DNA of 64,000 nucleotides from Clostridia bacterium (GCA_045531335.1 JAZSDU010000048.1:733-64732), one strand, 5' to 3'; numbered from the stretch's first letter, positions 11,744-58,520 are shown. A program made the numbers and translations. Notes: a model not told the origin generated them from the letters alone.

Positions 11744-11819
11744 TGTAGGGGGCGCACTCTTGGGCGACCCGATTTCAACAATTTTATTTTGCGGGTCGCC
11801 GAGGACGGCGACCCCTACA
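11744..11819. repeat. GTAG-headed GC-rich palindrome doublet (REPIN-like), copy A
   Basis: TGTAGGGGG...GGGCGACCCG, an AT-rich linker, then CGGGTCGCC-gaggac-GGCGACCCCTACA. Sits 40 nt downstream of the argS stop. Confidence 0.8.
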
Positions 11820-11858
11820 TTTTGCTTCTCTATTTTTAAGTTCTATCCTAAATAAGTT

Positions 11859-13568
11859 TTACATACGTTCTGGCATTTCCATACCTAATAACTCTGCTCC
11901 CGATTTTAATACTGTTCCAACGGCATAAGTCAAATAAATTCTAGCATCTTGAACAGATTTCTCATCTGTAATTATTTTATATTCATTATAAAATGTACTA
12001 AAACTTTGACTTAAATCTATTAAATATCTAGCAAGGATTGATGGTTCATTCTTATCTGCTGCATTTTGTATAACTTCGTTAAACATATAAATAAGTTTTA
12101 TTGTTTCTATTGCTTCTTTTTCATTTAGTTTGCTAAAATCTATTTCTTCGATTTTTGGAGTATATCCTGCTTTATTCAATAAACTTTTTGTTCTTACATA
12201 AATATATTGAATGTATGGACCTGTTTCACCTTGAAAATTTAGCAACATATCCCAATCAAATATTTCATCTTTTATTCTACTATTTGATAAATCATTAAAT
12301 ATTATTGCCCCTACTCCTACTTTTCTAGCTATTTCATCTTTATCTTCTAGTTCAGGATTTTTTTCATTTATTATATTCTTAACTTTATCAATTGCTTCAT
12401 TTAAGATATCTTCTAAAAATACTGAATTACCTTTTCTTGAGCCTATTTTTTCTCCATCTTTATCTACTACCAATCCAAAGGGAACATGTACACATTTTGA
12501 AGCATATTCTTCATATCCCATTAATTCTAAAACTTTAAACACTTGTTTAAAATGTAATTGTTGTTCATTTCCTACAACATATATTGCTTTATCAAAATTG
12601 TATTTGTTTATTCTATCTTTTAATGATGCTAAATCCCTTGTTGCATAAATTGTTGTTCCTGCTGATGTAATAATTATACATGGTGGCATATTGTATTCAT
12701 CTAAATCTACTACTCGTGCTCCTTGTGAATCTTTTAATAATCCTTTTTCGGTTAACTCTTCTACTACTGGATCCATTTTATCATTGTAATATGCTTCTCC
12801 ATTATATGAATCAAATTTTGAGTTTAATAATTTATATGTTTTTTCGTAATTTTCTAAACTTATTTTTCTAATATGTTCCCAAGTTGCAACTGTTTCTTTG
12901 TCTCCTTCTTCTAAATTCTTAAATAATTTTCTTGCTAACTCTGTAAGTTCTGGATTCTCTTTTTCTTCCTGGTTAAATCTTATATATACTTTAAGTATAC
13001 TTGCCATTTCGTCATTTTCGAAATCATATTCATCTTTCCAAAGATTTATACCTGCCATTACTTTACCAAATTGAAGTCCCCAATCTCCTAAATAATTTAT
13101 TCCAACACTGTTATATCCTAAAAAATTATATATTTTATATAAAGCTCCTCCTATTACAGTCGAACGTAAATGTCCGATATGGAAAGGTTTTGCTATATTT
13201 GGTGCTGAATAATCAATTACAACATTTTTGCCTTCACCTAAATTTGATGAACCATATTTTTCTTTATTTCTTGAAACCTCTTCTAATACTGTTTTTGTTA
13301 ATGTTTCTTTATTTATAAATATATTTAAATATCCACCAACTACATCTATTTTATTAATTATATTCGCATCTATTTCAATATTTTCTTTTATGTCATTTGC
13401 TATCATAGGTGGTGCTTTTCTTAAATCTTTAGCTAGTTTAAAACAAGGAAAAGCATAATCTCCTAAGTCACTATTGGGTGGTATTTCAATATATTTTTCT
13501 AATTCTTCTTTATTTAGATTTGTTGCTTTTGCAATTTTTTCTGCTATTTCTTCTTTAAAATTAATCAT
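11859..13568 (-). CDS. argS: arginine--tRNA ligase
   Basis: APNIAKPFHIGHLRS (HIGH) and a class I core with a C-terminal DALR-type anticodon-binding region. Confidence 0.95.
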   Translation of the reverse strand: MINFKEEIAEKIAKATNLNKEELEKYIEIPPNSDLGDYAFPCFKLAKDLRKAPPMIANDIKENIEIDANIINKIDVVGGYLNIFINKETLTKTVLEEVSRNKEKYGSSNLGEGKNVVIDYSAPNIAKPFHIGHLRSTVIGGALYKIYNFLGYNSVGINYLGDWGLQFGKVMAGINLWKDEYDFENDEMASILKVYIRFNQEEKENPELTELARKLFKNLEEGDKETVATWEHIRKISLENYEKTYKLLNSKFDSYNGEAYYNDKMDPVVEELTEKGLLKDSQGARVVDLDEYNMPPCIIITSAGTTIYATRDLASLKDRINKYNFDKAIYVVGNEQQLHFKQVFKVLELMGYEEYASKCVHVPFGLVVDKDGEKIGSRKGNSVFLEDILNEAIDKVKNIINEKNPELEDKDEIARKVGVGAIIFNDLSNSRIKDEIFDWDMLLNFQGETGPYIQYIYVRTKSLLNKAGYTPKIEEIDFSKLNEKEAIETIKLIYMFNEVIQNAADKNEPSILARYLIDLSQSFSTFYNEYKIITDEKSVQDARIYLTYAVGTVLKSGAELLGMEMPERM

Positions 13569-13604
13569 GTGCTGCTCCTTTTTTAATTATGTGTATTTTC
13601 TTTT

Positions 13605-13630
13605 GGGCAGGCACAAGACCTGCCCCTACA
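13605..13630 (-). repeat. GTAG-headed GC-rich palindrome singlet (REP-like), copy B
   Basis: Minus strand reads TGTAGGGGCAGG-tcttgtg-CCTGCCC. It starts 19 nt after the pfkA stop. Confidence 0.7.
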
Positions 13631-13648
13631 TTATTTTGCAATATATTA

Positions 13649-56701: not shown

Positions 56702-56707
56702 TTCTTT

Positions 56708-56736
56708 ATTATATTATTTTTATATCATTTTGTCAA
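56708..56736 (-). promoter_or_regulatory. perfect-consensus sigma-A promoter (antisense RNA)
   Basis: Minus strand TTGACA-17 nt-TATAAT, convergent with 56414-56442. Confidence 0.6.
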
Positions 56737-56742
56737 ATCATT

Positions 56743-58416
56743 TTATACTATCATTCCATCTTGCATAGTAATAATCTTATTACACAATTTTGTTGTTTCT
56801 AATCTATGCGCAATTATTATACTTATTTTTTCTTTTGTTACCTCTTCTATTGCATTTTTTACTAACATTTCTGCATTGTTACTTAAATTTGATGTTACTT
56901 CATCTAATATTATCAAATCCGGATTTATAGCCATTATTCTTGCAAAGTTAATAAGTTGTTTTTCTCCAGTTGATAAAATATCTGGATTGTCAAATATATT
57001 TGTGTTGTACCCATCTTCTAAAGTCATTATCTTGTCATGTAGTTTTAATCTCTTAAATATATTTTCTATTTCTTCTTCTTTTATTTCTTTATTAACATAC
57101 CTTATATTATCAATTATTGTGCTTGGTAAGAGTTGAACATCTTGCATTATATAACCTATATTACTTCTTAGTGATGATACACTATAGTTTTTATAATCAC
57201 TACTATTTATTAAAATTTTTCCATCTTTAGGTTCATAAAATCTGCACAATAAATTTGTTATTGTACTTTTTCCGCTTCCAGTTTTTCCAACTAAAGCAAT
57301 TTTATCATTTTGATTAATTTTCAAATTAAATTTTCTAATAGTTTTTTGATTGTCATTATATGAAAAATTTACATCTCTAAATTCTATAGAAGTTATTCCT
57401 TTTAGTTCTTGTCCTTTGTCAATTTCTTCTACATTTTCTATTGATAAAAATCTAAGTATTTTTGAATACGCAACAAATGCTTTATTAAAATCCGTCAAAC
57501 GCCTTATAAACCAATTAAATTCATATCCAAGATTTCCACTATAATCAATTAGCAGCATTATTTCTGCATAAGATGCTAATCCCTTAACAAGATTATTTCC
57601 ACAAAAATATATTATCAAAGGTATTGAAAGCGATGTTATAAATGTAAATATACTGTTGTATTTTGCAACAATTTTTTCTACCTTTTTATTTTCTGAAGAA
57701 AATTCTCTTAATCTTACTTCTAATTCTTGTATTTTATTATCTATAATTTCTAATGTTTTTATTTCTAAAAAACCTTGAATCCCCTCATTTATTAATGCGT
57801 ATATTTCTATGTTGGTTTTTCTTATTTCATTTATTTCTTTTAGCGTTTTTTTATTGAAATATATTGTTACAAAATACCCTGTTACATATAACCCTATGAT
57901 TAATAAAGTTATTTTTAAATCTATAAACATTAAAAATATTGCTGCTATTAAAAATCTTATAACTCCCATAAAATACATTTCTACTATTATATCTGGAAAT
58001 AACTTTCCTGATTCATATGTATCGTTTTGCATAAATTGCATTATCGTTCCAGAAGTATTTTCATCATAAAATTTTGTATTAATCTGTTGTAATTTATTAA
58101 ATACTTTTTCTCTTAATTCTCCTTGCATTACCCTTTGTAAAATGCATCTCATATCACAATGTTTTAACACCATATAACTTTGTATTAATATTCCTACAAT
58201 AAATACTGCAGAATATACAAATACACCTTTTATATTTCCACTTGGAATTTCTACATTTATAATTTTCTTTGTTATATATATTGCTAAAAGGACCTCCATA
58301 ATAAACGCTACTTCAATAAGTAAAAATAACTGTACCATTTTTTTATGATGTCCTGCATGTTTATACATTTTATACAAATCTTTTAATTTTTTTGATTTCA
58401 TCTTTTGCTCCCACAT
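56743..58416 (-). CDS. ABC exporter, fused permease-ATPase
   Basis: Six-helix TMD followed by an NBD with GKTGSGKST, LSTGEKQ and LIILDEVTS. Confidence 0.85.
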   Translation of the reverse strand: MWEQKMKSKKLKDLYKMYKHAGHHKKMVQLFLLIEVAFIMEVLLAIYITKKIINVEIPSGNIKGVFVYSAVFIVGILIQSYMVLKHCDMRCILQRVMQGELREKVFNKLQQINTKFYDENTSGTIMQFMQNDTYESGKLFPDIIVEMYFMGVIRFLIAAIFLMFIDLKITLLIIGLYVTGYFVTIYFNKKTLKEINEIRKTNIEIYALINEGIQGFLEIKTLEIIDNKIQELEVRLREFSSENKKVEKIVAKYNSIFTFITSLSIPLIIYFCGNNLVKGLASYAEIMLLIDYSGNLGYEFNWFIRRLTDFNKAFVAYSKILRFLSIENVEEIDKGQELKGITSIEFRDVNFSYNDNQKTIRKFNLKINQNDKIALVGKTGSGKSTITNLLCRFYEPKDGKILINSSDYKNYSVSSLRSNIGYIMQDVQLLPSTIIDNIRYVNKEIKEEEIENIFKRLKLHDKIMTLEDGYNTNIFDNPDILSTGEKQLINFARIMAINPDLIILDEVTSNLSNNAEMLVKNAIEEVTKEKISIIIAHRLETTKLCNKIITMQDGMIV

Positions 58417-58444
58417 TAATTTTTATTAAGTAATACGTTTAAAT

Positions 58445-58520
58445 CGAGCGGACATCCGTTAGCTGTGCGAATTTATAAGCTACAGATAACGCATACACAG
58501 TAGGGTCGTCCGCCCCTACA
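58445..58520. repeat. degenerate REP/REPIN-like element, copy G
   Basis: ...GAGCGGAC...GTAGGGTCGTCCGCCCCTACA, ending 4 nt from the upstream gene's stop. The left half is diverged. Confidence 0.5.

Follow-up and report, generated by a model that had tools for sequence, protein, structure and literature searches.

What are the short GC-rich palindromes that stand behind genes in an otherwise very AT-rich genome of the Clostridia, and by what enzyme might they have been spread? The question is raised by a stretch of 64,000 nt from Clostridia bacterium (GCA_045531335.1 JAZSDU010000048.1:733-64732), with a G+C content (GC) of about 27%, which is analysed here as a whole and is called the window. 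The source organism is an uncultured ruminant gut bacterium, and 20 bovine, sheep and gut metagenome runs match the segment 11000-15000, with up to 0.64 of the sampled words. A preliminary description of the window, drawn from the sequence alone, had reported palindromes headed by GTAG at seven sites, as singlets or as inverted doublets, and had compared them with repetitive extragenic palindromic (REP) elements and with REPINs (REP doublets forming hairpins). REPs and REPINs are small mobile DNA hairpins known mainly from Escherichia coli and Pseudomonas. To our knowledge, the systems that they form with REP-associated tyrosine transposases (RAYTs) have been studied almost only in Proteobacteria. 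We consider it highly probable that the repeats of the window are REP elements and REPINs of a large family of gut and rumen Clostridia, mostly Oscillospiraceae and Ruminococcus, with a cognate RAYT that itself carries a REP pair. The tag, the covarying hairpin, the doublets, the copy number, the spread and a clade of REP-bearing RAYTs all support the comparison made in the preliminary description.

Architecture of the repeat units

Both strands of the window were scanned for hairpins composed of GT[AG][AG], a gap of 0-3 nt and a stem of 6 bp or more, in which 5 or more pairs are G-C and no more than 1 is mismatched. The scan returned exactly 8 clean units, namely six arms of doublets and two singlets; two further copies are decayed. 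The clean units lie at 11745-11770(+), 11793-11818(-), 13605-13629(-), 21234-21259(+), 21279-21304(-), 42221-42247(-), 53884-53909(+) and 53933-53958(-). The six arms form three doublets, REPIN 1 (11744-11819), REPIN 2 (21233-21305) and REPIN 3 (53883-53959). All seven sites claimed in the preliminary description were recovered at the same positions, and the two copies that it had called degenerate (45481-45505 and 58445-58520) are indeed both real relics. A chance origin of the repeats was rejected, as 30 dinucleotide-preserving shuffles of the window gave 0 units in the same scan and CCCCTACA occurs 9 times in the window versus 0.28 expected. The occurrence of CCCCTACA at 27666 was rejected as a repeat copy and attributed to chance, the hairpin being absent there.

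Each of the six doublet arms is exactly 28 nt long and has the form TGTAGGGG-N16-CCCG, with one arm beginning TGTAAGGG. Written with the GTAG end first, the arm consensus is TGTA[G/A]GGG-N16-CCCG, and the linkers between the arms measure 20, 17 and 21 nt. The stems of the clean units are 7-9 bp long and contain 6-8 G-C pairs, with loops of 4-8 nt. The tag is GTAG in seven of the eight clean units and GTAA in the other, its offset from the stem is 0, and a T stands directly before it in every copy of the window. The unit proposed earlier, TGTAG followed by a GC stem of 7-9 bp, is the one that the hairpin scan recovers, and the doublets are, as proposed, two such units in inverted orientation, three times in the window. 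The proposal of a conserved linker motif, AATTAAAAT, fared less well: two doublets have the exact motif and the third an approximation of it, but the motif is unconserved in relatives and is therefore no feature of the family.

In every doublet of the window the left and right arms differ by compensated base pairs. In the doublet at 21233, for instance, C-G and G-C of one arm correspond to T-A and C-G of the other, so that both arms retain their own stems while the complementarity between left and right is lowered. Covariation was quantified in 173 unique 28-nt units from the window and 118 genome loci, which were chosen by their fixed ends only. Complementarity at the pairs 9-24, 10-23, 11-22, 12-21 and 13-20 was 97, 98, 98, 80 and 90%, respectively (n=173), with up to four pair types at a position, as compared with 16-50% in the control in which the partner column was moved by one. 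Because the stems covary both among the 173 units and within the doublets of the window, the hairpin is under selection.

The flanks of the three doublets and the two singlets share no direct repeat, so a target-site duplication (TSD) is absent, and they show no terminal inverted repeats (TIRs). A DDE-type miniature inverted-repeat transposable element was rejected, as there is neither TIR nor TSD, and so was a CRISPR or tandem array, as the copies are dispersed.

Copy number and spread of the family

To estimate copy number, contigs of four ruminant gut metagenome runs (X1-X4) were aligned to REPIN 1, and the depth summed for each arm was compared with that of the single-copy flank. The depth of the type-A arm (TGTAGGGGTCGCCGTCCTCGGCGACCCG) was 2667 against a flank of 23 in X1, 1569 against 17 in X2, 294 against 6 in X3 and 615 against 6 in X4, which amounts to about 50-115 times the single-copy depth. 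In each run this arm was found on 24-49 different contigs, whose flanks were AT-rich and unrelated. Most of these contigs were at least 95% identical to the arm, which suggests that it was either copied recently or is strongly constrained. Both arms of REPIN 3 reached about 1200-1500 against about 20 in X1, and tens of times the single-copy depth across X1-X4. Identical copies of the singlet at 13605 lie inside other metagenome contigs with different flanks, and contigs of all four runs terminate at the repeats. The copy number is high, on the order of 100 per arm type, a figure valid as an order of magnitude only since repeats common to related species may inflate metagenome depth.

The spread of the family was determined by a scan for the doublet pattern in one genome per species; the pattern specifies 24 bases, and its chance expectation is far below 1. 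It is present in at least 118 loci of species-representative genomes, with about 80 Clostridia among the matches listed. These Clostridia comprise Oscillospiraceae, Ruminococcus, Faecousia and unclassified Clostridia, and four strains of the cultured Ruminococcus flavefaciens (L008, L028, L051, L118) are among the matches listed, which also include Pyrinomonadaceae, Planctomycetota, Chloroflexota and Bacteroidota. At some loci nearly every intergenic gap holds a REP or a REPIN, and several REP subfamilies occur together. AT-rich relatives (26-31% GC) share the arm types of the window, type A and type B being found in L049 and L057. Given the occurrence of the family in the metagenomes and in these genome loci, confinement of the repeat to the window is ruled out.

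A RAYT in relatives

An enzyme that may act on the repeats was found in a metagenome-assembled genome of the Oscillospiraceae. An open reading frame (ORF) at 636-1229 of its locus L060 adjoins one REP, holds a REP inside and matches TnpAREP of E. coli; it had first been flagged as the single candidate of a pattern search for the HuH and Tyr motifs. With the TnpAREP query verified against PDB 4ER8, the two proteins align from the HuH motif through the catalytic Tyr (phmmer E 4e-4 in the local ORF set, BLASTP 1e-7) and are about 24% identical over the core. A Pfam scan of L060 gave no match for the transposase ORF.

The enzymes of this family are HuH/Tyr transposases of 160-210 aa. The L060 enzyme has 29 close relatives, and more than 8000 relatives by profile, for many of which the source gives the name "REP element-mobilizing transposase RayT"; the profile matches include proteins of Cyanobacteria, Capnocytophaga and Marinimicrobia. 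When the family profile was compared with the PDB, the best match was 4ER8 (TnpAREP) at E 4.9e-11, and IS200/IS605 enzymes were weaker, with ISDra2 TnpA at 7e-4 and others worse. NCBIfam NF047646, "REP-associated tyrosine transposase", was matched at E 1e-12 to 1e-23. Its bit scores were 80.8 for P0145, at a curated cutoff of 80, followed by 74.7 for P0190, 50.5 for P0011 and 47.3 for P0001, as compared with 16 for IS200. The invariant columns of the family include M-P-N-H-x-H and Y-I-x-x-N-P, the consensus contains WQRSYHDHIIR, and the spacing from HuH to Tyr is about 66 aa. Judged by these profile and motif comparisons, the enzyme of the Clostridia family is of the RAYT (TnpAREP) type rather than an IS200/IS605 transposase. 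Cleavage and rejoining of REPs on single-stranded DNA is known only for the enzymes of E. coli, Stenotrophomonas and Marinomonas (PMC8266576).

REPs within the transposase genes

Thirteen RAYT genes, in L060 and L119-L138, were read as DNA. In 12 of the 13, two inverted REPs lie in frame within the coding sequence about 125-190 bp apart, one upstream of HuH and the other between HuH and Tyr; the gene of L135 has a single internal REP. The internal REPs encode the motifs "VG.G.LD.P" and "S.PT" of the family. The RAYT gene of L120/L121 has an internal REP identical to an intergenic copy 870 bp away (L120), and the L120 contig holds a second RAYT with its own REP type and copies of that type nearby.

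Enzymes matching the window repeats were sought with a chimeric protein query, P0020 with two 9-residue stretches swapped for peptides encoded by the window REPs. The chimera was a search device only, and its matches are real database proteins. VLGDP was present in 24 of the proteins returned, including P0145, P0187 and P0190, which are of Ruminococcaceae/Clostridia by their NCBI names. Their genes (L128-L130) carry TGTAGGGGTCGACGTCCTCGGCGACCCG twice, which is 1 nt from the type-A arm of the window. For the singlet at 13605, the nearest internal REPs, with 6 differences, belong to the RAYT genes of "VG.GLAP" type found in L125 and L126.

Despite their GC-rich REPs, the RAYT genes of L060 and L119-L138 are more AT-rich than the loci that host them (gene GC 0.30-0.45 versus locus GC 0.36-0.58). 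The internal REP pair brackets the HuH-coding segment and is near base-for-base constant in hosts of 38% to 55% GC. These features allow the speculative and rather doubtful idea that the RAYT gene itself is the master copy of its repeats, with a built-in REPIN that would seed the genomic REPINs and might be a target for self-regulation or rearrangement. If that were true, the REP populations of Clostridia, including that of the 27% GC genome, would descend from protein-coding sequence, and REP sequence and enzyme peptide would co-evolve directly.

Position and orientation relative to genes

The genes of the window are nearly all on the minus strand, which is the leading strand by GC skew, and all ten repeat copies are intergenic between co-directional minus-strand genes. 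The distances from the upstream stop codon at the seven sites are 39, 18, 11, 28, 20, 5 and 3 nt; the range of 3-39 nt is close to the 4-40 nt given earlier, with somewhat different bounds. The genes next to the copies are argS-upp, pfk-argS, a riboflavin-kinase-like gene and spoIIIAA, galK, trxB-trx and ABC exporter genes.

On the gene strand, T-runs are missing behind all copies of the window, and the sole terminator-like call at the repeats is on the antisense strand (11793-11814). Intrinsic terminators were therefore rejected for want of a U-run on the gene strand, in keeping with the earlier remark that the repeats are not classical terminators, which holds at every copy. An Rfam 15 scan at gathering score and a tRNA scan gave 0 matches over the whole window.

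Taken together, 183 kb of AT-rich loci and the window contain 22 doublets and 22 singlets. Both window singlets lie on the minus (gene) strand, as had been said of all singlets relative to transcription, and among the singlets between co-directional genes in the AT-rich relatives and the window, 13 of 14 have the GTAG on the sense strand. Where genes are co-oriented with replication, the sense strand serves as the template of the lagging strand, on which a Y1 transposase would be expected to act. The orientation bias of the singlets fits integration into this template and a role in RNA equally. Once co-transcribed, the hairpins may serve as barriers to 3'-exonucleases or as processing points.

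Turnover between relatives

REPIN presence differs at two orthologous sites between the window and relatives 80-87% identical to it, gain and loss being not distinguishable. In the locus L089, which is about 80% identical over 34.5-41.1 kb, a REPIN separates the orthologue of 34950-36389 from that of the glucan phosphorylase gene. At this site (36479-37791 versus L089 4605-4778) the window has genes for a class C sortase and an LPXTG protein and no repeat. The other site is that of REPIN 3, which is absent from a contig about 87% identical to the window, where trx is joined to trxB via 17 nt. A tblastn search of the REP-flanking genes against the collected loci gave an orthologous context in L089 only. 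The closest strains keep REPIN 1 and REPIN 2, with point changes inside the left arm of REPIN 1. In the closest strains of X1 and X2, over 13431-13650, a different REP-like sequence (...TTTCTGCCCCCCATATTTTATTATC) replaces the 13605 singlet in the pfk-argS gap.

Two further differences between strains were observed. The trx/trxB flanks of REPIN 3 (53600-53870 and 53974-54250) were not found at 88% identity or more in X1-X3; since these runs otherwise hold the organism at about 98-99% identity, the locus is strain-variable or replaced. A 711-bp segment, 15020-15732, which includes a serine O-acetyltransferase gene (15151-15663), is missing from contigs of X1 and X2 and present in X3 and X4, and is a strain-level gene presence/absence polymorphism.

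Proposed mechanism and alternative explanations

How might such repeats have been spread? The element is a short, non-autonomous DNA repeat whose unit is a 5' (T)GTAG tag with a GC-rich hairpin based on GGG/CCC. By analogy with TnpAREP of E. coli and with IS200/IS605, the RAYT would recognise the tag and the folded hairpin on single-stranded DNA. The target DNA would most likely be the lagging-strand template at the fork, where the enzyme would cut and rejoin, and REPs and REPINs would in this way be copied to new intergenic sites without target duplications. Situated a few to 40 nt behind stop codons in operons, the repeats would be co-transcribed and could then form very stable RNA hairpins.

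Several points weigh against a REP population served by its own RAYT. The copy numbers rest on metagenomes, in which related species with the same REP may inflate them, and the presence/absence differences are between fairly distant relatives and could be deletions rather than insertions. Neither the family hidden Markov model (HMM) nor the HuH/Tyr motif search found a RAYT or Y1 transposase in the 64-kb window, and the family HMM run on the window and loci L001-L118 found that of L060 only. The organism's own RAYT was not recovered, as pattern and protein searches gave RAYT contigs of 36-55% GC only. When metagenomes were scanned by pattern for AT-rich RAYT genes that contain REPs, 3 loci of 36-43% GC were obtained, and the genomic context of nine RAYT proteins consisted of contigs of 36-55% GC, none near 27%. 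In addition, the RAYT loci L128-L130 are without intergenic REPs in up to 20 kb, so that possession of the enzyme is not always paired with proliferation. The Y1 transposase that the preliminary description had proposed to look for is thus found in relatives, but neither in the 64 kb nor for the window organism.

The repeats could then be a relic population, that is, genuine REPs and REPINs of a lineage that lost its RAYT, now immobile and slowly decaying, with some copies perhaps kept for use in the mRNA. The lack of a RAYT in the window, and of one recovered for a 27% GC genome, would agree with this, as would the two of ten copies that are decayed or disrupted and a stem-breaking mutation in the left arm of REPIN 1, where a G at 11752 disrupts pair 9-24; the mutation is unseen in sister strains, those of X1, X2 and X4 having a T. 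RAYT genes, however, are single-copy as a rule, so that little can be read from the lack of one in 64 kb, and decaying relics are hard to match with the 24-49 type-A contigs per run, most of which are at least 95% identical to the arm. The same metagenomes also hold RAYT-like contigs with AT-rich flanks at similar depth (11-16), which match short conserved RAYT segments of L126 and are not assignable to the window genome. On balance we regard a relic population as unlikely. Still much less likely is that the hairpins are in the first place RNA elements, which spread or arose as terminators, attenuators, stabilisers or processing hairpins and resemble REPs only secondarily. Their location 3-39 nt past stop codons between co-directional genes and the strict sense-strand orientation of the singlets would suit such elements, and RNA folding could explain the covariation of the stems too. 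Against this, the gene strand is without a U-tract at the copies, several copies stand 27-36 nt ahead of the next start codon in apparent operons, and an Rfam match is absent. The orientation bias in co-oriented genes fits integration into the lagging-strand template equally, and a role in RNA fails to explain the invariant GTAG tag, the symmetric doublets, about 100 near-identical copies and the 28-mers inside transposase coding sequence.

Comparison with known systems

By their tag, hairpin, doublets, copy number, position and enzyme, the repeats belong to a REP/REPIN-RAYT system. One such system is that of E. coli, in which REPs and bacterial interspersed mosaic elements (BIMEs) go with TnpAREP (RAYT Group 2, TnpAY1 subclass 2.2; PDB 4ER8). 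Shared features are the 5' GTAG at the foot of a GC-rich imperfect palindrome, inverted pairs of two arm types (like Y and Z), extragenic positions behind genes, hundreds of copies, and a single HuH/Tyr transposase as the cognate enzyme. Whereas the stem is long and bulged in E. coli, the Clostridia units are built on a fixed frame of 28 nt, with a short, perfect stem that starts with GGG. The Clostridia enzyme differs from TnpAREP in being without a C-terminal extension and in having REPs within its gene, and the host is a Firmicute of 27% GC.

Another counterpart, compared by description, is TnpAY1 subclass 2.4, or RAYT Group 4. Subclass 2.4 is characterised by a stem base of three G-C pairs, in-frame REP insertions in tnpAREP, the lack of a C-terminal extension and scattered occurrence in many phyla (Quentin et al. 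2018, PMC6006769), and the Clostridia system shares these features of stem base, internal REPs, missing extension and distribution. There are differences as well: the distance from HuH to Tyr is about 66 aa in the Clostridia family versus a reported median of 88, and one of the Clostridia internal REPs precedes HuH instead of standing between HuH and Tyr. The repeats associated with RAYT Group 4 have been put at no more than about 14 occurrences (Bertels et al. 2017, PMC5581495), in contrast with the roughly 100 copies per arm type in the Clostridia family.

The REPINs of Pseudomonas (RAYT Group 3, subclass 2.5) resemble the window doublets as inverted REP doublets that form near-identical populations without target duplications, the doublet being the presumed replicating unit. 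The window doublets depart from them in their heterotypic arms with weakened left-right pairing, and enzyme clade and host phylum also differ. With the GTAG REP super-family (Di Nocera et al. 2013, PMC3733652) the repeats share a short stem-loop with the GTAG left unpaired at one of its ends, closely spaced units in opposite orientation, and a location chiefly behind ORFs, with the neighbouring genes unidirectional or convergent. The elements of IS200/IS605 (IS608, ISDra2) share the Y1 HuH enzyme type, single-stranded DNA hairpins, a guiding tetranucleotide, the bias for the lagging-strand template and the absence of target duplication. Those elements are autonomous, with the transposase between the hairpin ends, whereas the Clostridia repeats are non-coding, 26-77 bp long, and their enzyme is encoded by a separate chromosomal gene.

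The hosts in the survey of the GTAG super-family are Proteobacteria, Cyanobacteria, Chloroflexi and the PVC group, with Firmicutes and Clostridia unmentioned (PMC3733652), and neither PMC6006769 nor PMC5581495 names Clostridia among the hosts of REP-associated groups. Only the REP-less RAYT Group 1 has been placed in Clostridia, and only Groups 2 and 3 have been tied to abundant repeats (PMC5581495). The surveys PMC3733652 and PMC5581495 are in line with the earlier remark that accounts of such families in Clostridia are rare. We found no description of this family in the literature on REPs in Ruminococcus or in that on RAYTs and REPINs in Firmicutes, of which the part on RAYTs in Clostridia was covered only in part.

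With this family, the range of REP/REPIN-RAYT systems comes to include one of the major groups of anaerobes of gut and rumen, in which the system is abundant, as well as a genome very rich in A+T. That GC-rich islands persist at 27% GC suggests a strong sequence constraint from the enzyme or from the function of the hairpin. The repeats also have a practical side: they break short-read assemblies, and when read through they give rise to spurious ORFs or peptide motifs. The cultured R. flavefaciens carriers make REP mobility, orientation bias and effects on mRNA testable in a Gram-positive anaerobe.

Individual copies in the window

The left arm of REPIN 1 (11744-11771, plus strand) is TGTAGGGGGCGCACTCTTGGGCGACCCG, a type-B unit. 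It is followed by an AT-rich linker of 20 nt (11772-11791) and by the right arm (11792-11819, minus strand), which is the reverse complement of TGTAGGGGTCGCCGTCCTCGGCGACCCG, the type-A arm, with a 9-bp stem. REPIN 2 consists of the left arm TGTAGGGGCGGACGACTCTGTCCGCCCG (21233-21260, plus strand), a 17-nt linker (21261-21277) and a right arm (21278-21305, minus strand) that is the reverse complement of TGTAGGGGTCGACGACCCTGTCGACCCG; two compensated base pairs set it apart from the left arm. REPIN 3 has the left arm TGTAAGGGCGAGGTTCCACCCTCGCCCG (53883-53910, plus strand), in which the tag is GTAA, a linker of 21 nt (53911-53931) and a right arm (53932-53959, minus strand) that is the reverse complement of TGTAGGGGTCGGGTTCCATCCCGACCCG.

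The singlet in the pfk-argS gap (13605-13630, minus strand) reads TGTAGGGGCAGGTCTTGTGCCTGCCC on the gene strand, with the pfk stop codon 18 nt upstream and the argS start 36 nt downstream. The other singlet (42221-42248, minus strand), 28 nt past the galK stop codon, reads TGTAGGGGGCAGATTTCATATCTGCCCC on the gene strand. The copy at 45481-45505 (minus strand), TGTAGATGCGAAGCGCGTTCGCCCG, is a decayed REP of the short type whose basal GGG/CCC is gone, CCC having become ATC; it is related to GGGCGAAC...GTTCGCCCCTACA units in L014 and L092. The copy at 58445-58520 (minus strand) is disrupted: it starts with TGTAGGGGCGGACGAC, continues with about 47 nt of unrelated sequence and ends in ...GTCCGCTCGA. 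Its first 16 nt are identical to the left arm of REPIN 2. This copy lies directly behind a split ABC exporter (58524-60219), of which the membrane domain is encoded by an ORF at 59317-60219 and the ATPase by an ORF at 58524-59243.

Other features of the window

A second family of palindromic repeats, without the GTAG tag, is present at 2893-2948, 5108-5165, 5430-5448 and 18966-19020. Its motif [A/G]GGAC[A/T]GTCCC occurs 7 times in the window versus 0.03 expected, mostly as pairs 35-40 nt apart within inverted-repeat elements of about 60-70 bp. The family also occurs in the relatives L045 and L041, and metagenome contigs break at its copies.

The spoIIIAA gene (20195-21143) is present as two ORFs, which cover profile positions 1-123 and 164-271, with a frameshift near 20625-20640; the split reflects either a pseudogene or an assembly error. 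From about 22000 to 34000 there is an island of plus-strand genes in which the GC skew flips and no REPs occur. It encodes a MobV relaxase (24225-25469), a large serine recombinase (31667-33232) and an AAA ATPase (28169-29743) with weak matches to anti-phage ATPases, and is probably an integrated mobilisable element.

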